From contig CALWRJ010000010.1 of NCBI GenBank assembly GCA_944383915.1, forward strand, positions 139,828 to 203,827: a DNA stretch of 64,000 nt, given 5' to 3'. This DNA is from an uncultured Clostridia bacterium. Its GTDB lineage: Bacteria; Bacillota; Clostridia; Christensenellales; UBA1242. The notes beneath the pieces were generated by a model. That model was not told the origin of the DNA. It saw only the letters and a program-made list of their open reading frames with translations, and searched no databases. The position numbers and the translations under genes were made by a program. Of the stretch, positions 29,415 through 62,983 are shown in pieces (the stretch's first letter is position 1; the number at the start of each line of letters is the position of its first letter).

Positions 29415-29760
29415 CAATTATGGAAGTTATTTTCTAAATAAAATTTTAGCCACAATTACTAATTACTAATTTCTAATTCCTAATTATTTACATTTTTCCG
29501 CTACGCGCGGAGCGGTGCTGTGGACCGCACAGGTCAATAGCGTATGCAAGCATACGCGGAAGTCCGAAAATATTATTGCATTTCTCTTTTATGTTAACAC
29601 TAAAATATGTTAGTGTTTAATTAGAAAAAGGAAGTTTATATATTTATTAAGCTTCGCGCGCCAGCGCACTTTAATTGCTAATTGCTAACCGCTAATTGCT
29701 AATTGCTATTTCTCGCTTTGCGAGTAAAATTGCTAATTCGCGTTTACGCGTAAGTTTTTT
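29415..29760. repeat. mosaic intergenic repeat element (locus 2)
   Basis: AATTATGGAAGTTATTTTCTAAATAAAATTTTAGCCACAATT (also at 56813), an ACTAATT/TCTAATT/CCTAATT array, core copy 1, GCTAATT arrays, and the mini-hairpin CTCGC-TTT-GCGAG. Confidence 0.85.
29498..29639 (+). repeat. structured core of mosaic element, copy 1
   Basis: CCGC-TACGC-GCGG, CTGTG-GACCG-CACAG, AATAGC, GCGTATGC-AA-GCATACGC, GGAAGTCCGAAAATATT, AACACTAA..TTAGTGTT, AATTAGAAAAAGGAAGTTTAT. Confidence 0.8.
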
Positions 29761-29984
29761 GGCTTCTTTTGTCGAATGTAAAAAATTATTAATAATTACT
29801 AAACATTTTATATTTTATTTGGTAAATTTAAAGCACAAAATAATACTTTAAGGGGGTGCAAAATTTAGGGAGGGAGTTTATGGACAACTTCGATTTAAGA
29901 TTGATAACAACTATTCCAAATGAAAAATGCTTAAAAATTGCAGAAAAATCAAATAAAATATTATTAAATAAGGGGGAATTTCTT

Positions 29985-30380
29985 ATGGAAAATTTAAAAA
30001 GAATACATACAATTTGGAAGCCAGCGCTTGCGGTGTTGATATTAGTGGGACTGTGTTTAGGTATATTATCAGGCTGTGGCGAAAGTAGTTTAACTGGCAC
30101 TTGGACGCTTTCAAGAGTCACAAATGGCGAAACAACGGTTAATGCGGACGATACGAACAAGGGCGATTTCGAAGCGCCTTTTGAAAACGAACTAAAATTT
30201 AATGACGATGGCACGGGCACAATAAAAGTTAATTCCGCCGAAGCGCAAGATATGACTTGGACACAAGACGGCGATAAAATAACAATTTCGGTCAACACAA
30301 CTCAAACTGTCTATACCTTAAGCGGTAGCGAACTAACAATTCAAGACGGCGACACTAAATATTTCTATACTAAATCATAA
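29985..30380 (+). CDS. lipoprotein, unknown function
   Basis: MENLKRIHTIWKPALAVLILVGLCLGILSGC lipobox; RBS AAGGGGGAA. An in-frame alternative start at 29880 (RBS GGGAGGGAG) is possible. Confidence 0.55.
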   Translation: MENLKRIHTIWKPALAVLILVGLCLGILSGCGESSLTGTWTLSRVTNGETTVNADDTNKGDFEAPFENELKFNDDGTGTIKVNSAEAQDMTWTQDGDKITISVNTTQTVYTLSGSELTIQDGDTKYFYTKS

Positions 30381-30381
30381 A

Positions 30382-30408
30382 AATAAGCGATTTTTCGCTT
30401 ATTTTTTC
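30382..30408 (+). terminator. Rho-independent terminator
   Basis: ATAAGCGA-TTTTT-CGCTTAT followed by TTTTTT. Confidence 0.75.
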
Positions 30409-30843
30409 TTACGCTTCGCTTTACGCAACTCCGTTATGCGCTTCGCCATTCGGCTTCGCTTTATTTTGAATTTTGAATTACGGGCGCTTGTGCGCGAAGC
30501 TTTTTTATAGATAAATAAACTTCCTTTTTAATTTCATATTAACAAAATAATGAAATGCAATATTAATTACAGACTTCCGCGTATGCTTGCATACGCTAAT
30601 GAGCCAGCGGGGCAACAAAAGTATTAGTGGTCTAAAAGTGAATTGTACTCGCCGTAGGCGTATTGCTTGGACGGTCACCGTCCCGCTCCGCGCGTAGCGG
30701 AAAAAAATGCGAAGCATTTTGCTTTCTGTGCAAAAAGATTTTGCGTTAGCAAAAATTTTTGCCAAAAACCTAAACAAAACAAACAATATAAAGAAGCAAA
30801 AACAAACCAAAAAAATTAAAGAAAAAATAACAGTGATTTGCTG
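30409..30843. repeat. mosaic intergenic repeat element (locus 3, inverted relative to the others)
   Basis: TTTGAATT units, core copy 2 in reverse orientation, then the palindrome pair GCAAAAAGATTTTGC / GCAAAAATTTTTGC and an A-rich tract running into the 3' end of rsmI. Confidence 0.85.
30515..30700 (-). repeat. structured core of mosaic element, copy 2 (reverse orientation, ~45-nt longer)
   Basis: The reverse complement carries CCGC-TACGC-GCGG .. GCGTATGC-AA-GCATACGC GGAAGTC .. ATTTCAT..ATGAAAT .. AAAAAGGAAGTTTAT. The extra segment matches 54300-54350. Confidence 0.8.
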
Positions 30844-34042: not shown

Positions 34043-34091
34043 AGTATTCCCCCTTGTTATACTAATTGTATCACACAAAGGAAAGTTTGTC

Positions 34092-34118
34092 AAAAAAAGT
34101 GAGTAGTTAACTCACTTT
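34092..34118 (-). terminator. Rho-independent terminator distal to the repeat block
   Basis: Minus strand reads AGTGAG-TTAACTA-CTCACT followed by TTTTTTT. Confidence 0.7.
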
Positions 34119-34347
34119 TAATAATTAGGAATTAGTAATTAGGAATTATGGAAGGTATTTAATATTAATTTTATACCCAGCAATAACCGCTAATTGCTCA
34201 TTGCTAATTGCTAATTCACGCTTTGCGTGGTAGATTGCTAATTGATAATTCTCGCAAAGCGAGTAGGCTTGCGCGCACGCGCACATTAATTGCTAACTGC
34301 TAATTGCTAATTGCTAATTTAATTTTGAATTTTTGTAAAATTCAAAA
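34119..34347. repeat. mosaic intergenic repeat element (locus 4)
   Basis: AATTAGG/AATTAGT array, ATGGAAGG..TTTTATACCCAGC, GCTAATT arrays, CTCGC-AAA-GCGAG, GCGCGCACGCGCAC, and the palindrome AATTTTGAATTTT-GT-AAAATTCAAAATT at the prsA-like stop. Confidence 0.85.
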
Positions 34348-36087: not shown

Positions 36088-36156
36088 GTCTATAGTTCTC
36101 CTAGTTAGTTTAGTAATAAGTAGTAGTATTGTAGCATAAAAATTTAGAATATGCAA

Positions 36157-39612: not shown

Positions 39613-39622
39613 AAAACTCTCT

Positions 39623-40171
39623 CTATTTCGTGTCGGCTGGAAGTCCGTCCTTCATAAACTTTAAAGCATATTCTACGGCTTTGTCAATACCGACAGAAAC
39701 AGTTTGTTGAGTCCTTGGGTCCATTTTTCTTAAAACATACTCGGCTAAATCGGAGCCACGGCTCATTGAGTCTACGCCGATTCGAATGCGGTTAAAGTCG
39801 GTAGTGCCAAGGCGAGCGGTTACTGATCGGAGTCCGTTATGTGTACCAGCGGAGCCGAGCGGACGCGCGCGGACGAGCCCAGCGGTCAAGTCTACATCGT
39901 CTAGCACTACGCAGATATCGCTAGGCTTTATGTTATACTTTTTAGCGATGGCAAAGACGCAGTCCCCGCTACTATTCATAAATGTTTGCGGTTTAAGTAG
40001 TATTACTTCGTTGTCGCCGACTTCGACAATCGCCATAAGCCCGTTTTTGCGTTTTTTCTTAATCTCGACACCGTACTCCTCGGCGATTTTGTCAATTACC
40101 GCGAAGCCGACATTATGTGGCGTGTTATCAAACTCCGCCCCTGGATTCCCTAGCCCTACTAAAAGTTTCAT
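39623..40171 (-). CDS. pth: peptidyl-tRNA hydrolase
   Basis: MKLLVGLGNPG..TPHNVGF..GTHNGLRS. Start at 40171 has RBS AGGGGGA. Confidence 0.9.
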   Translation of the reverse strand: MKLLVGLGNPGAEFDNTPHNVGFAVIDKIAEEYGVEIKKKRKNGLMAIVEVGDNEVILLKPQTFMNSSGDCVFAIAKKYNIKPSDICVVLDDVDLTAGLVRARPLGSAGTHNGLRSVTARLGTTDFNRIRIGVDSMSRGSDLAEYVLRKMDPRTQQTVSVGIDKAVEYALKFMKDGLPADTK

Positions 40172-40726
40172 ATAATACATCCCCCTAATATTTATTTGTT
40201 CAAAATTTTTATAAATTAGCAATTAGCAATTAGCAATTAGCAGTTAATGTGCGCGTGCGCGCAAGCAATATATTTTTTATTTTTTGTTATTTTTTTATAT
40301 TTTTATTGATTTTTTATTCAATTTTAGGCGAAAAGATTTTTGACTTCGCAAAAAACATTTTCGCGAACAAAATAAAATATTTTTTCAAAAATTACTGCCT
40401 TAATTCCTAATTTCTAATTACTAATTATTATTTATGTCCTACGCGGACGGCGGTGCGGGCTGTCGTGTTGCTATATATCCTATAACCACTATCACTTTCG
40501 CCAGACTTTCCGTATCACCCCGTGATACTTCAAGGAGGGCGCACTCCCAATAGCGCGCAAGCGCGCGTGCGCTGCGCCGTTCGGCTTGCTTTAATTTTGA
40601 ATTTTGAATTTTGAATTTTGAATTAAGGCTGAAATTATTTAAATATAATATTAATTTTATACTCAGCCTTAACTGCTAATTGCTAATTGCTAATTGCTAA
40701 TTAAAAATTTGTTTTGCGTTGCAAAA
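40172..40726. repeat. mosaic intergenic repeat element (locus 5)
   Basis: AATTAGC x4 (40214-40244), T-rich tract, palindromes, CCTAATT-type array (40401-40427), core copy 3, TTTGAATT x4 (40603-40624), hairpin TTAAGGCTGA..TCAGCCTTAA, GCTAATT x4 (40673-40702). Confidence 0.85.
40436..40567 (+). repeat. structured core of mosaic element, copy 3 (5' part, with insertion)
   Basis: GTCC-TACGC-GGAC .. GTATCAC-CCC-GTGATAC .. GGCGCACTCCCAATAGC GCGCGC-AA-GCGCGC. Confidence 0.7.
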
Positions 40727-41572: not shown

Positions 41573-41988
41573 TAGGGTACTCCTTTAAATATTTATATCT
41601 TTTTTAATTGTTGCCCATCTCGTTTTAATTAGCAATTAGCAGTTAGCAATTAGCAATTAAGGCTGAAATTTATTTTATATCCTTTTTTGTTGTTTCGTTT
41701 CTCGTTTTAATTAGCAATATTACGAGCAAACGCGAATTAGCAATTAGCTGTCTAACTTGCTACACAAGAATTAGCAATTAGCAGGTAGCAATTAGCAGTT
41801 AATGTGCGCGTTCGCTACGCCTTTGGCTTGCTTTAATTTTGAATTAGGAATTTTGAATTTTGAATTAAGGCTGAAATTATTTAAATATAATATTAATTTT
41901 ATACTCAGCCTTAACTGCTAATTGCTACCTGCTAATTGCTAATTCTTGCGTAGCAAGTAAGATTCCTAATTCTCGCTTTGCGAGTATA
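41573..41988. repeat. mosaic intergenic repeat element (locus 6), includes a 48-nt inverted repeat
   Basis: Arms at 41755-41802 and 41911-41958 (47/48 complementary) flank GC box + TTTGAATT units + the TTAAGGCTGA..TCAGCCTTAA hairpin. Also carries the module AATTAAGGCTGAAATTT..TATCCTTTTTTGTTGTTTCGTTTCTCGTTT. Confidence 0.85.
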
Positions 41989-43319: not shown

Positions 43320-43339
43320 AATGATGTATATGCTTTTTT

Positions 43340-43475
43340 AAAATAATGTGTCACTTAAAAATTAGAAATTAGGAATTAGGAATTAGGAATTAGGAATTAG
43401 GAATTAAGGCTGAAATTTATTTATTTTAGGAAATAACTCCTTAACTGCTAATTGCTAATTGCTAATTGCTAATTT
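43340..43475. repeat. mosaic intergenic repeat element (locus 7)
   Basis: AATTAGA/AATTAGG x7 (43360-43409), AAGGCTGAAATTTATTTATTTTAGGAAATAACTCCTTAA, GCTAATT x4 (43446-43474). Confidence 0.85.
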
Positions 43476-43507
43476 AACAAAAAAGAGCATTTTGATGCTC
43501 TTTTTTG

Positions 43508-43509: not shown

Positions 43510-45178
<1,669 letters not shown>

Positions 45179-45483: not shown

Positions 45484-45645
45484 ATTATCACCTCTATTAA
45501 TTTTGCGAGTGAGCAATTTTTATCGTGCAATAAAAACACACCCTTCGCTCGCGTGTCCCTATATTTTACCACAAATTTATAAAAATGGTACACCTTTATT
45601 CATATTTTTTTGCAATTTTTTGTAAAATTGTACATAAAATTGAGT

Positions 45646-46422: not shown

Positions 46423-46644
46423 CCTCGCTTAAATTTATGCGAAGCGTAATTTTTTTAATTTTGAATTATGAATTTTAAATTTTGAATTATTGCTGGGTAT
46501 ATTATTTTTTTAGATAATACCTTCCACAATTCCTAATTCCTAATTTGGAAGGTTTCTTTCCTTAACTGCTAATTGCTAATTCTCGCGAAGCGAGTAAGAT
46601 TGCTAATTTCTAATTCCTAATTAATTTTGGACAAAGTCCAAAAT
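46423..46644. repeat. mosaic intergenic repeat element (locus 8)
   Basis: TTTGAATT-type units, TGCTGGGTATATTA.., CCTAATT units, GCTAATT units, CTCGC-GAA-GCGAG TAAGATT, and the terminator palindrome AATTTTGGAC-AAA-GTCCAAAATT at the CPBP stop. Confidence 0.85.
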
Positions 46645-48788: not shown

Positions 48789-48904
48789 AATTACCCTTTT
48801 GTGTTTTATTTACCTATTGTATCAAATTATGCGCGCATATTCAATCAATTTTCCAAAATTTTTCATTTTTCGCGCGTTTTTAATGTTGATTTTTTTGATT
48901 TAAC

Positions 48905-49260
48905 TGTTGTTTAAATTTTTGGCAAAAATTTTTGCTAGCGCAAAATCTTTTTGCACTGAAAACAAAATTTTTTTAGTTATTTCTGCCTTAATTCCTAATT
49001 CCTAATTCCTAATTAACTTATTTTTTCCGCTACGCGCGGTGCGGTGCGAAGGCGCACTCCCAATAGCGCATAAATGCGCGGAAGCCCGTAAGTATTATTG
49101 CATTTCTTTATTTTTTGTGTAATTAGAAATAAGTTAGTATCAAAAATATATATTTTTATAAATTATTCCTTAATTCCTAATTACTAATTAAGCGTAGCCG
49201 AAAGGCGTAGCGTACATCCTTAATTCCTAATTACTAATTCCTAATTCCTAATTTATTCAC
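48905..49260. repeat. mosaic intergenic repeat element (locus 9), last units extend into the CDS 3' end
   Basis: Palindromes GCAAAAATTTTTGC (48922-48935) and GCAAAATCTTTTTGC (48940-48954), CCTAATT x3, core copy 4, CCTAATT/ACTAATT arrays. Array units encode the final ..LGIRN and the TAG stop of CDS 49234-50385. Confidence 0.85.
49027..49140 (+). repeat. structured core of mosaic element, copy 4
   Basis: CCGC-TACGC-GCGG, GTGCG-AAGG-CGCAC, CCCAATAGC, GCGCAT-AA-ATGCGC, GGAAGCCCGTAAGTATT, AATTAGAAATAAG. Confidence 0.8.
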
Positions 49261-50385
49261 TATGGCTTTTAATATTTGGTAAACGATTACAAGCACGATT
49301 ACAATCATCATAATAGACATCATAAGATTAATATATTCCTCTAAGGTAAAGCAGAATAACGCGACTAGACTACTATCTATTGTGTTTGCCACGGTGAGTG
49401 CTAAAATCGAGCGCCCAACATCGAGTCGCAGTACCGAGCAAAGCGCGGCGGCGGTCCACACCCCAGACAACGGAATAGGAAGGGCGCAAAAAATGAAAAC
49501 TATCCAGAACTTGCCCCAAATGTAGTTATTTTGTGATTTTTTTGCACTTTTTTCGCGTTTTTTATCAATTTTTTGTTGTTTTTTGGTGATTTTTAGTTGT
49601 TTTTTGTCTATTTTTTGTACTTTTTTATCGATTTTTGGCGAATTTTCGTCTACAACATTATTTTCAACACTTCCGCCAAAAGTTATATTTCGCACATTAA
49701 TACCGTTTTCCGCCTGCATAGTACCACTATTTTCATTTTTAAAGGCGGTATTTTCATAATTATTCCCCTTATGCGTAATACCGCTTTGACTTAAAATATT
49801 GTGCTTTTTTATATGCATAGTACTTGTTTTTTTATGAAAAATAGCGTTTTTTAAATCTTGCATAGTACTATTGTTTGTATTATCGTCTTGTTTTGAAGTT
49901 GCTAAATTTAGATTTTTATTATCAATTTGAATTGTTTGATTTGGTGGTGCATTTTTTAAATTAAAGGTTGTATTTTTGTTAATTTTTGTTGTTTTTTCGT
50001 GATTTTTTGCTGAATATAGTGAATTTTGTTCTTTTTTGCTTAATTTTTCTGCTTTTTTGTTCTCTTTTTTAAGGACTCTAATTCGCTTTTTTTCGCTTTG
50101 TTTTGCTAGCCACTCAATGACGCGCGCATCGCACGAATCAAAAAATCTTTTTAAAAAAGGAATGCGCTCGAGTAATTTACGAAAGGGCAAAAAAATTGCC
50201 ACCGCGATAAAGGCGACAACAATTCCCCCTAGCGTTGCCGAAAGCCACGCAAGAGTGGCAGAAAGCGCACCATCGCCCCAAATAGCCGTGCTCATAACGA
50301 CAGGAATTGCGCCCTTCGTTTCTAAAACGGGTATCATTGCTAAAAACATACCCACAAAAAATACTAAAATCGGTGAAAAAGCCAT
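49234..50385 (-). CDS. small-multidrug-export-like (COG2426-type) membrane protein split by a ~190-aa low-complexity insert
   Basis: N-terminal (aa 1-96) and C-terminal (aa 287-383) TM halves together resemble a ~150-200-aa 4-TM family. The middle is K/N/Q-rich (KIDKKVQKIDKKQLKITKKQQKIDKK). Confidence 0.45.
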   Translation of the reverse strand: MAFSPILVFFVGMFLAMIPVLETKGAIPVVMSTAIWGDGALSATLAWLSATLGGIVVAFIAVAIFLPFRKLLERIPFLKRFFDSCDARVIEWLAKQSEKKRIRVLKKENKKAEKLSKKEQNSLYSAKNHEKTTKINKNTTFNLKNAPPNQTIQIDNKNLNLATSKQDDNTNNSTMQDLKNAIFHKKTSTMHIKKHNILSQSGITHKGNNYENTAFKNENSGTMQAENGINVRNITFGGSVENNVVDENSPKIDKKVQKIDKKQLKITKKQQKIDKKREKSAKKSQNNYIWGKFWIVFIFCALPIPLSGVWTAAALCSVLRLDVGRSILALTVANTIDSSLVALFCFTLEEYINLMMSIMMIVIVLVIVYQILKAIVNKLGIRN

Positions 50386-50690
50386 ACTTTAATATATTAC
50401 AAATTAAATAATTTTAGAATAAAGAACATACCAAATTAGAAATTAGGATTCTTACTCGCTGACGCTCGAATTTTGAATTAGGAATTGTGAATTTTGAATT
50501 ACGGCTGAAATTATCTAAATTAATATTTTATACCCAGCCTTAATTTCCAATTCCTAATTTCTAATTCCTAATTTGCGCTACGCGCATAGGCTTGCGCGCT
50601 AGCGCACAACAACTGCTAATTGCTACCTGCTAATTGCTAATTCTTGCGAAGCAAGTAAGATTGCTAATTGCTAATTAAATTTTGAACTTG
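50386..50690. repeat. mosaic intergenic repeat element (locus 10)
   Basis: AATTAGA/AATTAGG units, TTTGAATT units, ACGGCTGAAATTATC..TATACCCAGCCTTAA, CCTAATT-type array, GCGCGCTAGCGCAC, GCTAATT-GCTACCT-GCTAATT signature, CTTGC-GAA-GCAAG TAAGATT. Confidence 0.85.
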
Positions 50691-50730
50691 CGTGCAAAAT
50701 TTAAAAGGCACAAGTTAAACTCGTGCCGAA

Positions 50731-50806
50731 TGGAGCAGGTAAAGAGAATCGAACTCTCACATCAAGCTTGGGAAGCTCGTGTTCTACCACTAAACTATAC
50801 CTGCGC
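50731..50806 (-). tRNA. tRNA-Gly (anticodon CCC)
   Basis: The reverse complement folds as GCGCAGG.., anticodon stem-loop CGAGC-TTCCCAA-GCTTG, T-arm GAGAGTTCGATTCTCTT, encoded CCA. Confidence 0.85.
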
Positions 50807-50975: not shown

Positions 50976-51174
50976 TTAGGTTATTTGACACTATATTATT
51001 AAATTTGCCATTTATTATTAATTGATAATTATTAAATTTGATATTATTTAGGCATTATACTATCAAATTTTGTCACTTAGTGTTTAAATTTTGTCACTAA
51101 ACTACATTTTTGAGTTATGTTGTGATAAATTATTAAGATATTGTTTTATGGTAAAATCGTTATGTTTTCGCCTT

Positions 51175-53985
51175 TTAATTTGTGTTTTCAGCATCATCAT
51201 TATTTATTATTTCGGTGTTTTCTGCGGTTTCGTTTTCGTCATTTGCGTTTTCGTTTGAAGTATTTTCTGCGTTGTTTTCTGCGTTGTTTTCTGCATTTGC
51301 GTTTGAAGTGTTTTCCGCGTTATTTTCGCTGTTTGGGTTGTCTTGCTCGTTTGCTGGTTCATCTGGGTCGGCGGTAACGGTTGCGATGCTTGCGATTGTG
51401 TTACCGTTGCGGAGTTTCATCATACGAACGCCTATTGAGATACGGCTAACCTTACGGACATCGTTAGATTTTAGGCGAATAGTCATACCGTTGTTGGTAA
51501 TTAGGATAATATCGTCATTTGGTTCAATCTGGCGAAGTCCTACAAGGTCGCCTGTTTTTTCGTTAAATTCGCCAGCGCGGACACCCATTCCACCGCGAGA
51601 TTGGAGTCTATAATCTGTAATATCGGCGCGTTTTCCGTAACCGTTTGCTGTGATGGTAAGGACTTCGTTATTCGGTTTAATAATGCACATATCGACAAGT
51701 TTTGCGCCGTTGTCTAGGTGCATAGCCTTAACACCACGCGCGGTACGCCCGAGCGGACGGAGTTTTGTTTCGCTGAAACGGATACATTTGCCGGCGCTTG
51801 AAGCGACTAAAATATCGTCATCGCCCTTGCTGAGTTCGACTTTTACGAGTTCGTCCCCTTCGTCTAGCGAGATTGCTCGTTTGCCGACTTTCATAATATT
51901 GAAAAATTCGGTTACGGGCGTTTTCTTGATAAGTCCGTTTTTGGTTACCATAACGAGATAGCCCTTGCCGTTTGAAGTGTCCACGAAGTTTTCCTCGTTC
52001 TCGTTTTCGCTTTCGTCCTCAACGGTTTCGTCTGGCTCTAACGAGTTAAACGCGCTTTGCTCGGCAATGTCTGTTGTATCATCATAAACTGCGCCGTAAT
52101 TTGCCTTAGGGGTGAGCATTTGGTATGGAAGTCTAATCATCGCGTTTACGCTCTCGCCCTGGTTTAATTGAAGCAAATTGATAATTGCGCGCCCTTTGCT
52201 TGTTTTACTGCCTTCGGGGATTTCGTAGTTTTTAATTGAGTAAACTTTCCCTAGGTTTGTAAAGAACAAAATTGAGTCGTGGGTATTTGCGACAAACATA
52301 CGGTTTATGAAGTCGTTGTCCTTTGACTTGTGTGTAGTTATGCCGACTCCCCCGCGGTTTTGCGTGTGGTACTCGCTCAACGCCATTCGTTTAATGTAGC
52401 CTTGGGCGGTCATACTAACGACCATATCCTCTTTTGCGATTAAGTCCTCGACATCGAAGTTGCCGATATCGTGGCTAATTTCGGTACGGCGCGGAGTGTT
52501 GTATTTTTCCTTAATTTCGGTAAGTTCTTTTGCGATAATTGCAAGCACTTTGTTTGGGTTTTCCAAAATTGACTCGCACTCTTTGATGAAAGCGCGCAAG
52601 TCGTTTAACTCTTGTTGGAGTTTCTCGACTTCTAATGCGGTTAGACGAGCAAGGCGCATATCGAGAATGGCGTTTGCTTGTTTTTCGGAGAGTTCAAACT
52701 TGGTGCACAAATTAGTTAGCGCGTCCGTGCGTTCTTTACTGCTCTTAATAATATGGATAACTTCGTCAATGTTGGCGAGCGCGATAACTAGCCCTTCGAC
52801 AATGTGTGCGCGTTCTTTTGCGCGCTCGAGGTCGTACTTTGTCCTACGAACGATAACATCTTTTTGGTGTTCGAGGTAGTAGTACAACATTTCTTTTAGG
52901 TTTAAAACGCGGGGTTCGCCGTCCACGAGTGCTAGGAAAATAATTCCCATACTTGTTTGGAGTTGCGAATGTTTATATAGTAGGTTTAGGACGACTTGCG
53001 GGTTGGCATCGCGTTTTAGGTCGACAACGATTCGCATACCGTGGCGGTCGGACTCCTCTTTGATATCGGCGATTCCGTCAATTTTCTTATCTTTTACGAG
53101 GTTTGCCATTTGGATAATAAGTTGTGCTTTATTTACCTGGTAAGGTATTTCGGTAATGACGATTTTTGCCTTATTACCATCGTCCTCGATTTCGGCGCGA
53201 GCGCGTGTAACGACTTTCCCGTGCCCTGTTTTATAAGCCTGTCTAACGCCCATTCGTCCCATAATAATTGCGCCTGTAGGGAAGTCTGGGGCTTTTATGT
53301 AAGTCATTAGTTCGTCAATTTCGATATCGGGGTTATTAATTAGCGCGATAACGCCATCGATGACTTCGCCTAAATTGTGTGGTGGGATTGCTGTAGCCAT
53401 ACCTACGGCGATACCGTCAGCGCCGTTTACGAGCAAGTTCGGGTAGCGGGCGGGCAAGACAACGGGTTGTTGCAAGGTGTCATCGAAGTTTGGCGCGAAG
53501 TCGACTGAGTCTTTGTCGATGTCGCGGAGCATTTCGGCGGCGATTTTGCTAAGGCGCGCCTCGGTATAACGCTGTGCTGCGGCTGGGTCGCCGTCAATAC
53601 TACCGAAGTTTCCCTGTCCGTCAACGAGTGGGGCGCGCATTGTAAAGGGTTGTGCGAGGCGGACGAGAGCGTCATAGACTGCGGAGTCGCCGTGTGGGTG
53701 ATATTTACCTAGGACATCGCCGACAATACGCGCGCATTTACGGTATGGTTTATCGTTAAATAGGTTTAGTTCGCTCATACTGTACAAAATTCTGCGGTGG
53801 ACGGGCTTTAAGCCATCGCGGACATCGGGTATTGCACGCGTTACATTTACCGCCATTGCGTAGCCGATGAAACTCTCTTTCATTTCCTGGACGAGTTGGC
53901 GCTTTATAACGCGCGTGTTGTCCTGCTTGTCGTCAACAATGGGGTTCTCTGGTGTAATCGGTGTTGAATTTTCTTGATTTTCCAT
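51175..53985 (-). CDS. gyrA: DNA gyrase subunit A with acidic N/E/A-rich C-terminal tail
   Basis: 936 aa. ..[24 protein letters not shown].., active-site ..RYTE... The tail is ..[23 protein letters not shown].. (51178-51375). Confidence 0.97.
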
Positions 53986-54615
53986 AATTTTTTCCTTAAT
54001 TTTATTTATTTTTTGTTAATTTTATTTTTGTAGTTTTTTGTGTTTTTTGGGTTTGTTAGATTTTTTGTTTAGTTTAGTTTTGTTACTTTTTTGGCTTTAA
54101 AATTTTCACTTCGTGAAAACATTAAAGCACAGAAAACAAAATTTTTTCGCTTCGCTCAAATTAGCAATTAGCAGGTAGCAATTAGCAGTTGTTGTGCGCT
54201 AGCGCGCAAGCAATATAAATATTTTTAAAATACTACTGCCTTAATTCCTAATTTCTAATTTCTAATTCCTAATTATTTACTTTTTTCCGCTACGCGCGGT
54301 GCGGGACGGTAGCCCTTCCAGGCAATACGCCTACGGCGAGTACAATACTCTTTGAATATACTCAGCCTTAACTGCTAATTGCTAATTGCTCATTGCTAAT
54401 TCTTGCGAAGCAAGTAAGACTGCTAATTGCTACCTGCTAATTGCTAATTCGCGTGTAACGCGCAAGCCCCCGCGGACTCATTAGCAAACAAAGTTCGCGA
54501 AATCTATACCCAGCCTTAACTGCTAATTTCTAATTGCTAATTGCTAATTTGAGCGTAGCGAATAAAATTGCTAATTGCTAATTGCTAATTGTTTAATTTT
54601 GAATTACATTCAAAA
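53986..54615. repeat. mosaic intergenic repeat element (locus 11) separating gyrB and gyrA by 630 bp
   Basis: T-rich leader, TTTTCAC-TTC-GTGAAAA, AATTAGC..AGGTAGC signature (54159-54188) inverted again at 54420-54449, CCTAATT-type array, core copy 5, several GCTAATT arrays, and the palindrome GTTTAATTTTGAAT-TAC-ATTCAAAATTAAAC at the gyrB stop. Confidence 0.85.
54287..54350 (+). repeat. structured core of mosaic element, copy 5 (truncated)
   Basis: CCGC-TACGC-GCGG TGCGGGACGGTAGCCCTTCCAGGCAATACGCCTACGGCGAGTACAAT matches the extra segment of copy 2. A fragment CCCCCGCGGACTCATTAGC recurs at about 54467. Confidence 0.65.
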
Positions 54616-57155
<2,540 letters not shown>

Positions 57156-58370
57156 TCAATTTTTTGCAAAGTATTCCGCGCATTTCTTTTCGGCTTTTAG
57201 GGCAAATTTTTGAGCGCTTAAAGAGTCGCTATCTAGCATATCAAAAATATGTTCTTTTACGAGTTTGCCCGAGACAACTTGTTCGCGGTATGCACGGTAT
57301 TTTTCGATTTGTTCTTGTGAAAGCGAGTCGAGTTTGTTAGCGAACACGGAGTCGCAGAAGTCGACTAATTCTTTATTATACCGTGCAATCGCGCGAAGGC
57401 GGAAGTTATGTCGGCTGGCGTACTCGTCATCGTCACGCGCTATTTCGCCGTTGCCTTTTAGCGAGTGCCACCACGAATTTAGTCGTTTTCGGCGGTCGTC
57501 CGCGCAATCGGGTTTGATATGTGAGATATACAAGTACAGTAGTTTTTTAAACTCGGCGGTTTGCGCCGAAGTCTCGCGTTCGTTTTCGTTAAATACACTC
57601 GCGCTCTCGCCCATTACGAACTCGCGCCGAAGGATATTATTATTTAGCACATTCCACATACCGCAGAAAGTGGACACAACATCGGCGAAAGTTTCGAAGG
57701 GGGCGTTTCCGTATGATTCTGGCACGATTTTTTCTAAAATATCGTTCTCCCAGTTTGAGACGATGCCCTCCTCCATAAAGAGCGCGTACGGGTCGGTGGC
57801 GTATTTATTTTGAGAATCAACGCAGAAACTATAAAAGTGGTACGAGACATTGCCGAGGCGCAGAATTTCGGTATCGCGCACGAAACGGGGCCCTGAGTAC
57901 GAGTATATATAATTCGCCTTATTGAAGGGTTCGGTATGTCCGCCTGACATTGCGTGCAATAATTCGTGGACGAACGCGCCGGCGGTATTTTTGGAGAATG
58001 CCAGGTTATCGTCAAAGTCGGGCGAATGTATGTTTTCGTTGAGTTCGATTTTTTCGGAGATATTATCCTTAAAGAAGGGGGCGAAGTCGGGCGTTGTTTT
58101 TTCGCCTGTGCGCACGGTGTTTTCGTCCTGGTTGGTTATTTTAATGCTATTATAGCGTTTACCTTTATAAACGGTGGACTCGGTCATTCCAAAAATGCGG
58201 ACATCGGTTTCCCCAAAATGAAGTTTGGTATTTAGTATTCGCGCGACAATCTCGTAGCGCATTTCGGGGACGAGTGTCGAGACTTCGCGGTAGAACGCTG
58301 GAATCATTGTCGCGTACGGTCCAAATCTCTTATTTAGCAAATCTGCGTTTTCGATTTCTTTTTCTTTCAT
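57156..58370 (-). CDS. hypothetical HExxH (zincin-like) protein, paralog 1
   Basis: 404 aa. FVHELLHAM, downstream MEEGIVSNWENDILE, N-terminal KRFGPY. No signal peptide. Paralog of CDS 59029-60669. Confidence 0.5.
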   Translation of the reverse strand: MKEKEIENADLLNKRFGPYATMIPAFYREVSTLVPEMRYEIVARILNTKLHFGETDVRIFGMTESTVYKGKRYNSIKITNQDENTVRTGEKTTPDFAPFFKDNISEKIELNENIHSPDFDDNLAFSKNTAGAFVHELLHAMSGGHTEPFNKANYIYSYSGPRFVRDTEILRLGNVSYHFYSFCVDSQNKYATDPYALFMEEGIVSNWENDILEKIVPESYGNAPFETFADVVSTFCGMWNVLNNNILRREFVMGESASVFNENERETSAQTAEFKKLLYLYISHIKPDCADDRRKRLNSWWHSLKGNGEIARDDDEYASRHNFRLRAIARYNKELVDFCDSVFANKLDSLSQEQIEKYRAYREQVVSGKLVKEHIFDMLDSDSLSAQKFALKAEKKCAEYFAKN

Positions 58371-59050
58371 TTTTCCACTTTTAATATTATTTGTTTGATT
58401 GTTTAGTTTGTTTTGATTTTTTGATTTTATAGTTTTTTATTTATTTAGGCAAAAATTTTTGCTAACGCAAAATCTTTTTGCACTCAAAACAAAATTTTTT
58501 CGCTTCACTCAAATTAGCAATTAGCAGGTAGCAATTAGCAATTAACGCTGGGTTAAAAATTAATTTGGATAATTTCAGCCGTAATTTAAAATTCAAAATT
58601 CCTAATTCAAAATTCGAGCGCCAGCGAGTAAAATTCCTAATTCCTAATTATTTTACCCGCTACGCGCGGTGCGGTGCGAAGGCGCACTCCCAATAGCGCA
58701 TAGATGCGCGTTGTCCGTAAATATAATTGCTTTTCTTTTTTATGTTTACACTAAATTATGCTAATATCTAATTTATAAAAAGGAAGTTTATCTATTTATA
58801 ATTGCTTGCGCGCGTTCGCTATGCTTAAATTAGGAATTGTGAATTAGGAATTAGTAATTAAGGAGTTATATTAATATTATTTAATGCTTGCGCGCTAGCG
58901 CACAACAACTGCTAATTGCTAATTGCTAATTGCTAATTCTTGCGAAGCAAGTAAGACTGCTAATTGCTAATTGCTAATTGCTAATTCTTGCGAAGCAAGT
59001 AAGACTGCTAATTGCTAATTGCTAATTGCTAATTCTTGCGAAGCAAGTAG
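58371..59050. repeat. mosaic intergenic repeat element (locus 13), ends in a 48-bp x3 tandem repeat
   Basis: T-rich leader, palindrome pair (58448-58480), AATTAGC signature, core copy 7, AATTAGG units, GCGCGCTAGCGCAC, then 3 units of ACTGCTAATT(GCTAATT)3CTTGCGAAGCAAGTAAG (58907-59050) overlapping the 3' end of CDS 59029. My count may be off by 1 nt here. Confidence 0.8.
58656..58790 (+). repeat. structured core of mosaic element, copy 7
   Basis: CCGC-TACGC-GCGG, GTGCG-AAGG-CGCAC, CCCAATAGC, GCGCAT-AG-ATGCGC, GTTGTCCGTAAATATA, ..AAAAAGGAAGTTTAT. Confidence 0.8.
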
Positions 59051-60669
59051 GCTTGCGCAGTACTTGATTGCGCGGTGCTTGTGCTTGCTTGCGCAGGTGG
59101 CGGGGCGAGTTCGTTTTCCGCGATTGTTTTTTTGTCGTGGACGAACAATATTTTGCCTTCTCTTGCGCGTTCGTTCGTGTAGCGATTAAGTTCGCGCTCG
59201 TACGCCGAAGTCAGCCAACTAACTTTTGCGTAGCCCTTTTCGTTTTTGTCCTCGTCACGAAGCAAGCCTAGTGCAGTTTTTTTTAGCATATTGGGGCTGA
59301 CAAGACTTTTTCTTTTGCCTAAATAATCGAGGCGCTCGCTTTTATTTAGTGATTTAGTCTTGAGCAAATTCTCGAATTTCTCATCGCAAAATTTGATAAT
59401 ATTAACAAGGCTTTTTGCGCTTTCTATATAGTCTAGTTTTTCTAGGTCGACTTTGGCGTTTTGCGGTTCTCCCAAAAGGGTCAGCATAAAATCATTAAAA
59501 AGTTTATCAAACTGCTCCACCTCGCCCGCTGGCGTTTTTTCGCCGACATTCCCTGTCATATGTTGATTCCTCAACTCGCCGTTGCTCACCGCGTTATACA
59601 TACCCGCGATATAAGGCAGTGCGCCATAAGAGAGTGTCGGCACGAGATAAAAACTTTTTAGTTCATCGCAAAAGCCTAGATTTTCGGCGATATCGTTTGC
59701 CCAGTCCTCGACAACACCTTCCTCGCGGTAACGATTCACCATATTGTATACGGGCTGTTTTTTATTCCAAGTTCCGCGGTCGAACGCATCGCGCACGAGT
59801 TCTTGAGACAACTCCACCTTTCCGCCCTGTTTAAAGAACACTGTAATTGAGTTTTCGTTATTTTCTCTAACGCACTCTTTTAGGTCTATCATACAGTGAA
59901 GCATTTCGTGGATGAACGACTCGCGCACGGTGTATTTATTAATCGCGTTATTCACTTCGTTTATTTTTTCGAGGTTGTCTGTTTCGTCAATTTTTTTCAG
60001 GACCTCGCTAGTATTGAGTGCTTTAACGGTGGACAAGTTTCTATCGTTATCGAGCGCAAAGAAGTAATTTAGGTTTTCGGTAATTTCGGGCGGGACTGGG
60101 TCTATCTCGACAATAGACGGAATATTTTCAACAACTAAATTTTGTGGGGAGGCAGTTTCCTTTTTATCCTTTTCCTTTTTATTTAGAAGGGAATCGAAGT
60201 AAGCCTTACAAGACCGGGCGAACTCGTGGACATTGTCCCGTATTGGCTCGCCCCTTTTTCGCGCGTTTTGAGGCGTTTGCGCGGTATTCTGCGCGGGCGG
60301 TGGCGGTGTAGTCTGGTAAGCAGTGGCGTTTGGCGTTTGTGTCAAGTTTTGCGCCATTAAAGAAGGGGTTTTTTCTTGTGAAGGAGTATCTTGTGGTGTT
60401 GGGTCTAGGTTATGCGAGACCTGAACTGTATAATAGTACTTGCTGTCGTTGTAGTTTAACTCGCGTTTTGAGACCCCGCTGACGCCTTCAAGGTCGTTAA
60501 AGCGGAAGTTTACCGAGTTAAATCTATCGAATATTGTTTTGCGTTTCTCGGGGGTGCTGTCGACTAGTTGTTTATACAGTGCTGGCGCGAACATTCCAAA
60601 CGGTCCAAACCGTCTCCGCATATTCTCGCTATCAAGAAAAAATTCCCTTTCGCTTTCGTTAAAGTCCAT
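59029..60669 (-). CDS. hypothetical HExxH (zincin-like) protein, paralog 2, with P/Q/T-rich insert
   Basis: 546 aa. FIHEMLHCM, REEGVVEDWANDIAE, N-terminal RRFGPF. The last ~15 codons and the stop lie inside the repeat array. Confidence 0.5.
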   Translation of the reverse strand: MDFNESEREFFLDSENMRRRFGPFGMFAPALYKQLVDSTPEKRKTIFDRFNSVNFRFNDLEGVSGVSKRELNYNDSKYYYTVQVSHNLDPTPQDTPSQEKTPSLMAQNLTQTPNATAYQTTPPPPAQNTAQTPQNARKRGEPIRDNVHEFARSCKAYFDSLLNKKEKDKKETASPQNLVVENIPSIVEIDPVPPEITENLNYFFALDNDRNLSTVKALNTSEVLKKIDETDNLEKINEVNNAINKYTVRESFIHEMLHCMIDLKECVRENNENSITVFFKQGGKVELSQELVRDAFDRGTWNKKQPVYNMVNRYREEGVVEDWANDIAENLGFCDELKSFYLVPTLSYGALPYIAGMYNAVSNGELRNQHMTGNVGEKTPAGEVEQFDKLFNDFMLTLLGEPQNAKVDLEKLDYIESAKSLVNIIKFCDEKFENLLKTKSLNKSERLDYLGKRKSLVSPNMLKKTALGLLRDEDKNEKGYAKVSWLTSAYERELNRYTNERAREGKILFVHDKKTIAENELAPPPAQASTSTAQSSTAQAYLLRKN

Positions 60670-61037
60670 TGCTATTCCTTTTATTTTGATTTTTTGTTAT
60701 TTTGGTTTTGTTACTTTTTGGTTTGTTTTATTTAGTTGTTCCTTTTAGGCAAAAATTTTTGCTAGCGCAAAATCTTTTTGCACAGAAAACAAAAATTTTA
60801 AAATTTTCAGCCTTAATTCCTAATTCCTAATTCCTAATTATCTTTTTGCACTCCGTGCAGGGCGGGGATAGAGTCCCCGCGGACTCATTAGCGTATGCAA
60901 GCATACGCGGAAGTCCGTAAATATTTTTGCTTTTCTTTATTTGCTATTGCGCAATTAGAAAAGGAAGTTTATTGTTTATAAAATTGCTTGCGCGCGAGCG
61001 CCCCGTAATTCCTAATTCCTAATTCAAAATTCGAGCG
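60670..61037. repeat. mosaic intergenic repeat element (locus 14), one complete unit filling the whole spacer
   Basis: T-rich leader, GCAAAAATTTTTGC (60749-60762), GCAAAATCTTTTTGC (60767-60781), CAGCCTTAATT, CCTAATT x3, core copy 8, GCGCGCGAGCGCC, CCTAATT/TTGAATT units up to the recF stop. Confidence 0.85.
60847..60972 (+). repeat. structured core of mosaic element, copy 8
   Basis: TGCAC-TCC-GTGCA, GCGGGG-ATAGAGT-CCCCGC, CATTAGC, GCGTATGC-AA-GCATACGC, GGAAGTCCGTAAATATT, AATTAGAAAAGGAAGTTTAT. Confidence 0.8.
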
Positions 61038-62225
61038 CTACGCGCGAATGTTCATCTCCTTCACCACTCCGTCCTCCACCTTAAAGAGTTTATCGGGCAC
61101 TGCGGGGTAGTCCCATTCGGTGCAAGTTATCACGGTATTAAAGTTTTTGCAATACTTCATTAGGCGGTGGCGTCTATTCTCGTCAAGTTCAGACAAGACA
61201 TCGTCCAAAAATAAGACAGGCTTTTCAAAGAAAAATTTTTTGTACATAAACATTTCGGCAATTTTAAGTGCTAGCGCGGCGGTGCGCTGTTGTCCTAGAC
61301 TTCCTTCGGTGCGGAGTGGTATCCAGCGGTATTTTTCCGTTCTCAAATCGCCCCCAGGGACAGTTTGCGTTATGTAGCCGAGTTTGATTTCGAAGTCATC
61401 TAGATGCGCGCCCACATTCGTTGTACCTGTCGTGATGTCCCTTAAATAACTTGCGCGCATTTTTTCGGTGTAGACTTTGTTGAATGTCGAGGCGTGGATA
61501 TCGTCTAGCCTATCAAAAAATGTCTTGTAAGTGATGCGCAGGGTTTCTTTGTCGTCAGTAAGCAGTCGCATTGTTGCCGCGGCGAAGTCGTTTACCCAGC
61601 GGAGCATTTCTTTTCGGCGAAGCATAACGCGGATACTATCTCTGCCTATCAGCAAGTCCCACGGAATCAAAGTTGAGTCATAGCCACGCGGGTTGAGTTT
61701 GATTGAACGCAAGAGTGCGTTTCGCTGTTTGATTGAATTTTGCAAGTCGTTTAAGAGCCTCAAATACCACGAACAAGTTTGGCAGTTAATCATATCCATA
61801 TAGCGCCTGCGGTAAACCGGTCCACCGCGCACGATGTCGATTTCGTCAGGGCTAAAATAGACAGACGGAAAGTTGCCAACGATATCGCTCACCTTTGTGC
61901 TTGTTTGCCCGTCTATTTGGACAATTTTGCCTTTGTTAGAAAAAACACTCATTCCTAGCATATGCTCGCCATCGCGTTTAGAAAAAGTAATGCTAATCTC
62001 GTTATTTTTCTTGCCTGTTTGTATCGTTTCGGTGTCCTTACGCGTCCTAGGACTGCGCCCTATTGAACACATTCGCATAGCCTCTAAAATGTTCGTCTTG
62101 CCCGCACCGTTCGCGCCACAAATAACATTTAGCCCTTGCGCAAACTCGATTGTCTGGTCCTTTAAGTTGCGAAAATTTTTTACCGTCAACTTATTAATTT
62201 TCATTTTCTCGTTAAAATCTAACAT
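61038..62225 (-). CDS. recF: DNA replication and repair protein RecF
   Basis: Walker A GANGAGKTN, ..LSLGQQR-like signature EGSLGQQRTAALALK, Walker B LFLDDV. The start may be the internal MKINKL. Confidence 0.9.
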   Translation of the reverse strand: MLDFNEKMKINKLTVKNFRNLKDQTIEFAQGLNVICGANGAGKTNILEAMRMCSIGRSPRTRKDTETIQTGKKNNEISITFSKRDGEHMLGMSVFSNKGKIVQIDGQTSTKVSDIVGNFPSVYFSPDEIDIVRGGPVYRRRYMDMINCQTCSWYLRLLNDLQNSIKQRNALLRSIKLNPRGYDSTLIPWDLLIGRDSIRVMLRRKEMLRWVNDFAAATMRLLTDDKETLRITYKTFFDRLDDIHASTFNKVYTEKMRASYLRDITTGTTNVGAHLDDFEIKLGYITQTVPGGDLRTEKYRWIPLRTEGSLGQQRTAALALKIAEMFMYKKFFFEKPVLFLDDVLSELDENRRHRLMKYCKNFNTVITCTEWDYPAVPDKLFKVEDGVVKEMNIRA

Positions 62226-62519
62226 AACCTACTCCGCTATTTTTTAAACTCTTTTCTTGCAAAGCGCACAAAAACTGCTTTTCATAAAACTTCGGCTTGT
62301 TTAGGCACTAAAACCGCTTGCTTGTCTATAATATAAAAGCCTACCTTGTTTAGCGCTTTTAAAAAACAATTTACCCCTTTCAAAGTCACTTATTAAAGCA
62401 ACAGAGCCTCGCGTACACGCGTACGCGCACGCGCGCGCGTAACAAAAAAAGACACGAGCGCACTTACTCTTGCCTAAATTATACCATATTTAATTATATT
62501 TATCAATCAAAAAGACTAA

Positions 62520-62983
62520 ATAATTTGAACAAAGTTCAAATTTTACGCTACGCTTAAATTTAAAATTTTGAATTTTGAATTTTGAATTAAGGAAGGTATA
62601 TTAATTTTATACCCAGCATTAATTGCTAATTGCTACCTGCTAATTGCTAATTCTCGCAAGGCGAGTAAGATTGCTAATTGCTAATTCGCGTTTACGCGTT
62701 TATGTATCCGAAAAAGGCAAAAATACACCCTTTTCGGTTGTGATAGAAAAGAAACCTTTCAAATTAGTAATTAGTAATTAGAAATTAGGAATTAAGGCAG
62801 AAATATCTAATTATTTTTTTAGGAAATACCTTCCTTAACTGCTAATTGCTAATTGCTAATTGCTAATTCTCGCAAGGCGAGTAAGATTGCTAATTGCTAC
62901 CTGCTAATTGCTAATTCTCGCAAGGCGAGTAAGATTGCTAACTGCTAATTGCTAATTTGATTAATTTTAAACAGTGTTTAAAA
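62520..62983. repeat. mosaic intergenic repeat element (locus 15)
   Basis: AATTTGAAC-AA-GTTCAAATT, TTTGAATT x3, AAGGAAGGTATATTAATTTTATACCCAGC, GCTAATT-GCTACCT signature x2, CTCGC-AAG-GCGAG TAAGATT x3, AATTAGT/AATTAGA/AATTAGG array, and the palindrome TTGATTAATTTTAAAC-AG-TGTTTAAAATTAATCAA at the vWA stop. Confidence 0.85.

Follow-up and report, generated by a model that had tools for sequence, protein, structure and literature searches.

What kind of DNA separates the housekeeping genes of an uncultured gut Clostridia bacterium, and how did it come to lie there? The question is raised by a 64,000-nt stretch (hereinafter, the window) of GenBank assembly GCA_944383915.1 (positions 139,828 to 203,827, forward strand, of the 214,212-nt contig CALWRJ010000010.1; Christensenellales, UBA1242), in which the spacers between genes such as recF, gyrB and gyrA are composed of the same small parts, namely, arrays of the heptamer GCTAATT, short hairpins and a larger structured core. 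Here we show that blocks of these parts have been copied between spacers in both orientations, that a whole spacer can be a nested palindrome with facing heptamer tails, that the modules lie in the gap bounded by one gene's terminator and the next gene's promoter or ribosome-binding site (RBS), and that the repeat family was gained in the lineage of the window. The spacers probably hold lineage-specific, non-autonomous, hairpin-forming intergenic repeats, that is, a mosaic of the type represented by REP/BIME and by small dispersed repeats (SDR). What sets the family apart is its density, the fixed blocks of four heptamers, a grammar of nested palindromes and what appears to be the splitting of an ancestral operon.

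Distribution of the repeats in the window

The 15 spacers that the initial annotation described as modular mosaics all contain the parts in question, and Tandem Repeats Finder reported period-7 arrays at each of them. Doublets of GCTAATT (GCTAATTGCTAATT), with at most one mismatch allowed, match 77 times compared to 0.15 matches expected from shuffled sequences; exact doublets of NCTAATT number 102, of which one lies in coding DNA and seven precede position 29246, and there are 28 arrays of at least three heptamer units. The spacers add up to 6,859 nt, and 4,296 nt (63%) of this have a counterpart of at least 85% identity in another part of the window; outside the spacers, just 387 nt do, in unrelated repeats of the tRNA region, leucine-rich repeats (LRR) and low-complexity repeats. 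The family makes up about 18% of a 35-kb stretch.

All modules are non-coding and, like REP sequences, are located mainly at the 3' ends of genes, in co-directional or convergent spacers; two loci, 58371-59050 and 48905-49260, extend into the final codons of two genes. The positions 29-64 kb carry, on the minus strand, the housekeeping genes recF, X, Y, gyrB, gyrA, a tRNA gene, groES-groEL, tadA, pth-mfd and tmk-holB-yaaT-rsmI, where X and Y are our names for two genes of unknown function located between recF and gyrB. The notion that almost every spacer is filled holds for the 15 loci but not for the tight, repeat-free junctions inside operons (tmk-holB-yaaT-rsmI, pth-mfd and the following gene, groES-groEL, tadA-carboxypeptidase), nor for the spacer 45517-45609, the sole divergent one of that half of the window; the low-GC half (1-29 kb) contains a single repeat locus.

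The GC content shifts sharply, from ~30% in positions 1-30000 to ~42% in positions 30000-64000, and the genes at 1-29 kb are mostly accessory ones, including those for a BspA-type LRR protein, a Mbeg1-like protein, LigD, Ku, two C5 methylases and an HNH nuclease. This low-GC half, which is nearly free of the repeat family, would fit recently acquired DNA, and a binning or assembly chimera at ~29-30 kb is possible. That the repeats themselves stem from an assembly or chimeric-binning artefact, as the GC jump and the breaks of same-species short-read contigs in repeats might suggest, has a negligible probability. Two contigs of the same species, assembled independently from metagenomes of other samples, SAMEA6814672 and BRZ_AN, are colinear with the window without gaps, one (L225) over 2,080 nt at 99.86% identity and the other (L226) over 2,268 nt at 99.78%; the colinearity crosses a complete 629-nt spacer and ~10 arrays without an indel. 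This agreement of three assemblies excludes the assembly artefact that had been named as a possible refutation, and demonstrates that the arrays are stable at the strain level; furthermore, the repeat copies differ from each other, and modules are found in metagenome-assembled genomes (MAGs) of other species. Both contigs begin at window position 58695, inside a core, and one ends within a heptamer block, which indicates that the repeats break short-read assemblies.

Modules and traces of copying

The building block of the family is a 31-nt 'tail', ACT(GCTAATT)4, combined with one interchangeable palindromic 'head' that can be a 13-nt mini-hairpin, an 18-nt GC box, an AT-rich hairpin of ~50 nt or a core of 150-200 nt. 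The tail is nearly constant in length: 12 of the 15 perfect GCTAATT arrays consist of exactly four units and the other three of three units, and ACT precedes all 15. The remaining parts that had been proposed were found as well, all of them in non-coding DNA, namely, the signature GCTAATT-GCTACCT-GCTAATT (8 copies), the GC boxes (9 sites), the hairpin arms AAGGCTGA...TCAGCCTT and TATACCCAGCCTTAA, and the core (8 copies in the window), which comprises 3-4 hairpins and is usually accompanied by a palindrome pair and an A/C-rich tail. The supposed octamers TTTGAATT are actually heptamers, GAATTTT.

The mini-hairpins, CTYGC-NNN-GCRAG, yielded 30 strand-matches, all non-coding and 10 of them followed by TAAGA. 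They sit inside the arrays, and their stems covary, with 8 copies of CTCGC/GCGAG, 7 of CTTGC/GCAAG, 1 of CACGC/GCGTG and 2 of CGCGT/ACGCG, the loops being variable; 16 of these 18 are in one orientation relative to the adjoining AATTAG block. In general, the hairpins of the window are 13-18 nt long and have perfect stems, with CTTA before and AATTAG after them. Conservation of stems with variable loops could result either from selection for pairing or from template-switch correction of quasi-palindromes. The sequence GCGAAGC, present in one strand of the mini-hairpin, forms an exceptionally stable DNA mini-hairpin, and the triloops seem to favour structure formation at the level of DNA.

Units that contain one heptamer block each are tandemly duplicated in the spacers, with periods of 48, 69 and 82 nt; the 48-nt unit is present in three copies with 100% identity and the 82-nt unit in 2.2 copies with 98% identity. 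Composite pieces of 75-127 nt are common to different spacers, in direct and inverted orientation, at 86-96% identity, and the repeat copies overall are 60-96% identical. These pieces and the tandem units testify directly to copying between loci and to duplication between neighbouring blocks. The number of units does not vary through slippage as it does in the hypervariable simple sequence repeats (SSRs) of contingency or phase-variation loci: the fixed four-unit blocks and the lack of indels across the three assemblies indicate that we are dealing with copied modules rather than free-running microsatellites.

Order, orientation and folding of the spacers

We read the spacers in the orientation of the genes and then coded them as modules. 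The usual order starts with the stop codon, followed by an AT-rich palindrome (TTTTxxxx-loop-xxxxAAAA) and AATTAGC blocks with mini-hairpins and GC boxes; the middle consists, often after a long AT-rich hairpin, of the core, an AATTAGG array and inverted GCTAATT blocks; and the end, of the palindrome pair, an A/C-rich tract of 70-115 nt, the RBS and the start codon. Wherever a spacer contains arrays in both orientations, which is the case in five spacers, all AATTAGC arrays lie upstream of all GCTAATT arrays, so that the blocks face each other; by our own count, the chance of such an arrangement is ~1 in 1600. Each of the eight cores points the same way as the gene upstream of it, including one inverted copy that follows a plus-strand gene, and the consistency of part order relative to the genes, which had been noted at the outset, is thus upheld by both the arrays and the cores.

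The nested inverted repeats that had been described are apparent in the folds as well. The element next to groEL (z = -8.5) and the complete 629-nt Y-gyrB spacer (z = -14.4) form nested hairpins, and in both cases, the outer arms are heptamer blocks.

After six of the eight cores come the palindrome pair, in its usual or a variant form, and an A/C-rich tract that varies in both length and sequence; the pair itself, GCAAAAAGATTTTGC / GCAAAAATTTTTGC, is conserved in four copies, each followed by the A/C-rich tract. In the convergent spacer, the A-rich tract of the inverted core unit abuts a stop codon.

Comparison with related genomes

The closest GyrB in GTDB, with one genome per species, is 94% identical. 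For RecF, identity to the closest protein outside the species is 68%; look-ups for Y and RecF led to same-species contigs and relatives, and exact-protein look-ups for GyrB and GroEL returned no record. The recF and gyrB genes, which had been taken for neighbours, are separated by X and Y both in the window and in the relatives. The junctions in this gene string measure 368 nt (recF-X), 658 nt (X-Y) and 629 nt (Y-gyrB) in the window, compared to 123, 3 and 73 nt, respectively, in a sister species (L001), the X and Y genes of which are orthologous to those of the window. In four other relatives, these junctions are overlaps or gaps of 40-70 nt, without heptamer arrays. In the relative L227, the first two junctions are overlaps and the third is 40 nt; at the loci L228 and L230-L232, which have no heptamers, the corresponding genes likewise overlap or lie a short distance apart. 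Among 80 gyrB neighbourhoods of related species, no heptamer arrays were found, except for two AATTAGC units in the sister species that directly follow gyrB, that is, in the orthologous position. The compactness of the recF-X-Y-gyrB string in relatives indicates that the expansion, the reality of which had been assumed in the initial annotation, is derived in the lineage of the window.

Given that the same junctions are operon-like in relatives, we considered the possibility that the units are functional expression cassettes, consisting of terminator-like hairpins, six-frame stops, a promoter in the core or palindrome pair and an A/C-rich leader, that were recruited to split ancestral operons into buffered cistrons, or else to act as REP-like intercistronic RNA stabilisers or RNase III sites. 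This appears unlikely, albeit by no means far-fetched. Upstream of X, Y and gyrA, the modules extend all the way to the RBS, so expression of these genes has to pass through the modules or begin within them. The consistent order and orientation of the modules, the palindrome pair kept in four copies ahead of the A/C-rich tract, the arrays that terminate two open reading frames (ORFs), the lack of indels between strains and weak -35/-10-like matches in two cores (58748-58720 and 49123-49094) are all compatible with the cassette scenario. However, a conserved sigma-70 promoter or intrinsic terminator in the modules was not supported, as such sites are no more numerous than in shuffled sequences and none of them is kept from copy to copy; the complete unit with its A-rich tract in the convergent spacer abuts a stop codon and has no gene to serve; many spacers retain a unique promoter region of their own, with modules just upstream; and the relatives express the same genes without any units. 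Thus, the strict grammar strengthens the case for cassettes and the orphan unit in the convergent spacer weakens it. The stronger statement, that each gene sits in its own insulated unit, goes too far because several operons are untouched and the modules carry no consistent promoter or terminator signal.

The modules themselves have a narrow distribution. The array-junction 22-mer AATTAGCAATTAGCAGTTAAGG is found nine times in the window and elsewhere only in the sister species and in a MAG from buffalo cecum, both of which contain a few short copies of modules with the same CCTTAACTGCTAATT junction. Six MAGs of rabbit-gut Clostridia (L200-L222) contain 23 copies of the core 20-mer hairpin TAGCGTATGCAAGCATACGC. 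There, it sits in a different conserved multi-copy element of ~190 nt that also shares the motif TTGCTTCGCAA, is modular, with optional hairpins nested in hairpin loops and stems kept by compensatory and G-U changes, and is located 80-230 nt downstream of a same-strand gene in 13 of 19 cases. The rabbit-gut element, exemplified by L211 (1-1500), is flanked by other heptamers (GTTAGAA, GCAAGAG), and L211 contains over 2 kb of non-coding mosaic. Because the shared 20-mer is nearly palindromic, the orientation of the core in the window and that of the rabbit-gut element cannot be equated.

Yet another possibility is that the core, palindrome pair and A-rich tail together comprise an RNA-mediated (retroposed) element to which heptamers were added by a template-repeat mechanism. 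The association of six of the eight cores with the palindrome pair or its variant and a tract of variable length and sequence, the co-orientation of all cores with the transcription of the upstream gene and the G-U wobble pairs that favour one strand in the rabbit-gut element could be so explained. Nevertheless, we regard retroposition as very improbable: no reverse transcriptase is encoded in the window and no target-site duplications were seen, GCGAAGC-type triloops are typical of stable DNA rather than RNA hairpins, the A-rich tracts are interrupted low-complexity sequences rather than homopolymer tails, and the element has no Rfam match.

Another relative (L003), with a GyrB 92% identical to that of the window, has long spacers (1-850 and 11912-12447) filled with different local repeats, namely, AGATTGCCGCGCTACGCTCGCAATG units and 77-nt units, and its gyrB-gyrA spacer is filled with unrelated repeats. 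The clade as a whole seems to be prone to intergenic repeat invasion, with species-specific parts.

Occurrence of the heptamer block in other phyla and database searches

The exact (GCTAATT)4 block was found in at least 119 stretches in a collection of species-representative genomes. Among the matches listed, there are many filamentous cyanobacteria, Bacteroidota, Acidobacteriota, Myxococcota, Planctomycetota and several Clostridia MAGs, with isolated four-unit blocks in Clostridia MAGs of 52-58% GC (L095, L111); at the loci L081-L199, the block is often near hairpins and arrays of one-substitution variants (GCTAATG, GGTAATT).

Conceivably, then, (GCTAATT)4 arrays are binding sites of a protein (a nucleoid-associated one, a partition or condensin loader, gyrase or a post-transcriptional regulator) around which the mosaic accreted, and the recurrence across phyla reflects a common or horizontally moved protein. 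In E. coli, BIME-2 binds gyrase and BIME-1 binds IHF, which offers a precedent. The block length is fixed at four units, and, among the matches listed, the same block appears in cyanobacteria, Bacteroidota, Acidobacteriota, Myxococcota and high-GC Clostridia, in the last of which base composition cannot account for it. The heptamer arrays of Xanthomonas also peak at four units (PMC4692102), and regulator binding has been proposed by MacGregor for the TAACTGA repeats. We find this explanation improbable all the same, given that no candidate protein has been identified, that a period of 7 bp does not match the turn of the DNA helix, that the scan across phyla covered the 28-mer alone and so gives no measure of enrichment, and that arrays are missing from the same loci in relatives whose housekeeping proteins are 64-94% identical, which implies that no essential conserved factor depends on the arrays. 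A bolder version, to which we assign a similarly low likelihood as a joint claim, is that ACT(GCTAATT)4 is the recognition or handle sequence of a recombination or binding machinery that is common to, or exchanged among, cyanobacteria, Bacteroidota, Acidobacteriota and Clostridia, with cassettes of six-frame stops, hairpins, a core and an A-rich leader spreading genome-wide in the lineage of the window and splitting ancestral operons such as recF-X-Y-gyrB into buffered cistrons. Were this the case, the family would be a mobile gene-expression insulator and not junk DNA.

Database searches revealed no counterpart of the family. In Rfam, only tRNAs pass the gathering score, with nothing credible at E<5 in 29.2-64 kb of the window and no match at E<1 for five rabbit-gut loci; BLAST of a full spacer against PLSDB plasmids and INPHARED phages returned no match, scans of viral contigs for the core 20-mer and the array junction yielded 0 matches, and so did two JGI metagenome scans. 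A literature search with the heptamer in all rotations produced no bacterial repeat named for GCTAATT. The statement that the family is unnamed therefore stands as far as Rfam, phages, plasmids and the searchable literature go, but the kind of element is already known. We also rejected a CRISPR array, as the 28-nt blocks number 2-4 per locus, are in both orientations and enclose repeated palindromes, and there are no cas genes; from the sequence, we likewise dismissed integron attC sites and the idea that the core has a small-peptide ORF.

Relationship to known repeat families

Heptamer arrays in intergenic regions and REP/BIME mosaics have been known before, so the family is not a novelty without analogues; what stands out is the density and regularity. 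The REP/BIME/REPIN group of Enterobacteria and Pseudomonas is the classical intergenic mosaic, in which the REPs are mobilised by RAYT tyrosine transposases. Like these, the family described here is extragenic, is built from a small number of palindromic units and linkers that alternate in orientation, as is evident from the module grammar and the nested inverted arrays, forms stable hairpins, follows the 3' ends of genes in co-directional or convergent spacers, and is lineage-specific, with variable copy number. However, the window units are perfect hairpins of 13-18 nt, unlike the imperfect 20-40-nt palindromes of REP with their conserved 5' GT(A/G)G head, lack a GTAG head and are tied to heptamer blocks and a 150-200-nt core, no RAYT gene is present in the 64 kb, the host is a gut anaerobe of the Bacillota, and the density is far higher.

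Closer in construction are the short tandemly repeated repetitive (STRR) sequences and SDRs of cyanobacteria. Elhai and colleagues are said to have described, in 2008, SDRs in Nostoc as hairpins of about 20-30 nt, more precisely 21-27 nt, nested in tandem heptamers and, reportedly, proposed RNA intermediates for them. The SDR study is among the references of PMC3116915. The shared traits, as far as the SDRs are concerned by description, are intergenic tandem heptamers that host hairpin elements, nested insertions, structure kept by compensatory change and a mobilising mechanism not known for either; in addition, (GCTAATT)4 itself is frequent in filamentous cyanobacteria. The differences are in the phylum and the sequences, as the STRR units, which we take to be CCCCAGT, TTGGTCA and CAACAGT, are distinct from the window heptamers, and in the architecture, as the arrays of the window are four-unit facing arms complemented by a core, a palindrome pair and an A-rich tail. 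The host being a gut Clostridia lineage known from MAGs, we set the family apart, by host and by heptamer unit, from the repeats of heterocystous cyanobacteria.

Miniature inverted-repeat transposable elements (MITEs) and the BOX (modular, boxA-(boxB)n-boxC), RUP and Bacillus cereus bcr elements are likewise short, non-coding and structured, with inverted termini, and lie between genes. The facing heptamer blocks resemble inverted termini, but the window has neither a defined terminal inverted repeat with a target-site duplication nor a related insertion sequence, or indeed any insertion sequence, and its modules recombine freely, so that there is no single element with fixed ends. We know of no sequence resemblance to any of these elements.

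Finally, heptamers have been reported as the most over-represented long SSRs in bacteria (Mrazek 2007, as cited in PMC4679880 and PMC4692102). The intergenic GGGAATC arrays of Xanthomonas most often have four units and sometimes form inverted pairs, and GGGGAYT arrays are found in Nostoc (PMC4692102); TAACTGA arrays have a patchy distribution in Beggiatoaceae, cyanobacteria and Bacteroidetes, and the mechanism of their transfer is not known (PMC4679880). The period of seven, the intergenic location, the patchiness across phyla and the breaking of contigs at repeats are all seen in our case as well, and so, in Xanthomonas, are the preference for four units and the inverted pairs that could form cruciforms. 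By contrast, the earlier arrays are mostly stand-alone, have 2-43 units and were explained by G-quadruplex formation or proximity to start codons (PMC4692102, PMC4679880), whereas the window unit is AT-rich and has no G-quadruplex potential, and its arrays are fixed in length, stable between strains and coupled to hairpin modules.

Origin and consequences of the repeats

A mosaic of non-autonomous, hairpin-forming intergenic repeats could produce new copies by two routes. By the first, hairpin modules would be copied into or beside heptamer blocks, through either a hairpin-specific single-strand DNA transposase or template switching at replication; by the second, unequal recombination or slippage between identical 28-nt blocks would duplicate and shuffle the intervening DNA. 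The family would be tolerated thanks to the six-frame stops provided by NCTAATT and to the location of hairpins outside coding DNA. The heptamer has TAA on one strand and TAG on the other, so at least three units stop all six frames, and insertions near the ends of genes would accordingly be harmless; two ORFs enter an array and end there after 7 codons at most, namely, X, with its stop at 59029-59031, and the ORF 49234-50385, which ends in GIRN*. Side effects on transcription termination and translation stops are likely, and an influence on expression is possible. Where modules make up an entire spacer, as upstream of X, Y and gyrA, they are either transcribed through or carry the promoter and hence now belong to the expression of these genes.

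Several observations weigh against this reading. The strict grammar, with constant four-unit blocks, eight of eight cores co-oriented and convergent arrays, could equally point to selection for function, and the four-unit block common to several phyla is not explained by simple local slippage. No transposase, Y1_Tnp or other candidate enzyme is encoded among the ORFs of the window, no target-site duplication is definable, and no presence/absence polymorphism was seen among the three near-identical strains, so current mobility is unproven. Six-frame stops are not general among other bacterial heptamer arrays, with 15 of 48 distinct units having stops on both strands compared to the expected ~25%; we therefore rejected them as a general selected trait of such arrays and treat them as a permissive feature rather than a proven function.

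Individual spacers and neighbouring genes

Table 1. Spacers of the window that contain the repeats, and their modules.
Positions (strand)	Setting	Modules and other features
14330..14641 (-)	Downstream of rluD-like gene	AATTAGN array, TATACCCAGCCTTAA arm, two ACT(GCTAATT)3-4 blocks; promoter-proximal part unique; only repeat locus of the low-GC half
29246..29855 (-)	Upstream of plus-strand lipocalin-like gene 29856-30380	Mini-hairpin, AATTAGC array, GC box, core 29480-29685, AATTAGN array
30381..30843 (+)	Convergent, lipocalin-like gene (+) / rsmI (-)	Complete unit of core 30470-30700, palindrome pair 30730-30763 and A/C-rich tract, inverted relative to all other copies
34094..34347 (-)	tmk to upstream gene	81% dispersed repeat; AT-rich palindrome, AATTAGC arrays, GC box, two mini-hairpins, inverted CCTAATT array
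40169..40726 (-)	Upstream of pth	(AATTAGC)4 block, AAGGCTGA...TCAGCCTT hairpin, GAATTTT array, variant core 40415-40600, AATTAGN array, A-rich tract, GC box, inverted (GCTAATT) block
41573..41988 (-)	tadA to hexapeptide-transferase gene	84% repeat; 123-nt piece 96% identical to 40580-40702
43320..43507 (-)	groEL terminator, then element	Palindromic element of ~130 nt: (AATTAGC)4, AT-rich centre, (CCTAATT)6; one long hairpin, z = -8.5
46423..46644 (-)	Convergent spacer	AATTAGN arrays, mini-hairpin, GAATTTT-type array
48789..49255 (-)	Unique promoter-like stretch adjoins CPBP gene	Core 49010-49160, AATTAGG arrays, palindrome pair 48921-48954; array 49226-49253 provides the last codons and stop (GIRN*) of ORF 49234-50385
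50386..50733 (-)	After tRNA gene	70% repeat; terminator, AATTAGC arrays with mini-hairpin, GC box, AATTAGN array, AAGGCTGG hairpin; 95-nt piece 92% complementary to 58555-58649
53986..54615 (-)	gyrB-gyrA	Four AATTAGC arrays, mini-hairpin, truncated core 54270-54375, AATTAGN array, GC box, inverted array, 115-nt A/C-rich tract up to gyrA RBS
56527..57155 (-)	Y-gyrB	88% repeat; two (AATTAGC)4-plus-GC-box units, core 56868-57040, three inverted (GCTAATT)4 units; whole spacer nested hairpins, z = -14.4; 82-nt tandem duplication (2.2 copies, 98% identical) at 56590-56770
58371..59050 (-)	X-Y	48-nt unit ACT(GCTAATT)4 + CTTGCGAAGCAAG + TAAG three times (100% identity) at 58908-59049, then GC box, core 58645-58830, palindrome pair 58448-58481, A-rich tract; X stop codon 59029-59031 and last 6 codons inside the repeat
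60670..61037 (-)	recF-X	Nearly all one composite element: AATTAGG array, GC box, core 60835-61010 (94% identical over 113 nt to core 56896-57008), AATTAGG array, palindrome pair 60748-60781, A/C-rich tract up to RBS
62226..62983 (-)	Upstream of recF	Distal 420 nt: arrays, mini-hairpins, AT-rich hairpins; proximal 338 nt (62226-62563) unique, with best sigma-70-like promoter match of the region at 62506-62478

The genes X (59029-60669) and Y (57156-58370) belong to a fast-evolving family without a Pfam or NCBIfam match (represented in the sister species at 7081-9927 of L001), the members of which contain an HExxH-like motif (HEMLH, HELLH) and are only 30-32% identical between species with 94% identical GyrB. 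The family has 1-5 paralogues that, across the clade (including L227, L228 and L230), are always located between recF, gyrB and gyrA. Neither dnaN nor dnaA precedes recF in the window, where a VWA-domain gene (62984-63955) is found instead; in relatives (e.g. L230, 6241-9187), recF comes immediately after dnaA, without an intervening dnaN, which is unusual for an origin region.

Repeats of other kinds are present in the window as well. Five tRNA genes cluster at 6819-7654, with local repeats at 6890-6973 and 7074-7159 that are unrelated to the heptamer family. A-rich low-complexity tandem repeats are found inside coding DNA, at 49606-50100 in the ORF 49234-50385, where they encode a K/N/Q-rich insert of ~190 residues that splits a small membrane protein of the multidrug-export type, and at 51228-51315, at the 3' end of gyrA, where they encode the NAEN-repeat tail of GyrA.

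Implications

Heptamer arrays coupled to nested hairpins have so far been known chiefly from cyanobacteria; to these can now be added an uncultured gut lineage of Bacillota, with an extreme and very regular form. Since the repeats break short-read assemblies, genomes of this kind would be fragmented and under-represented among MAGs. The four-unit block mirrors the preference of Xanthomonas for the same number of unrelated heptamers and recurs across phyla, which hints at a common mechanism. An essential gene, gyrA, is now located behind 630 nt of nested hairpins. As the gene string ranges from compact in relatives, through light invasion in a sister species, to the full invasion seen here, this clade may serve as a comparative system for the spread of intergenic repeats and their effects on gene expression.

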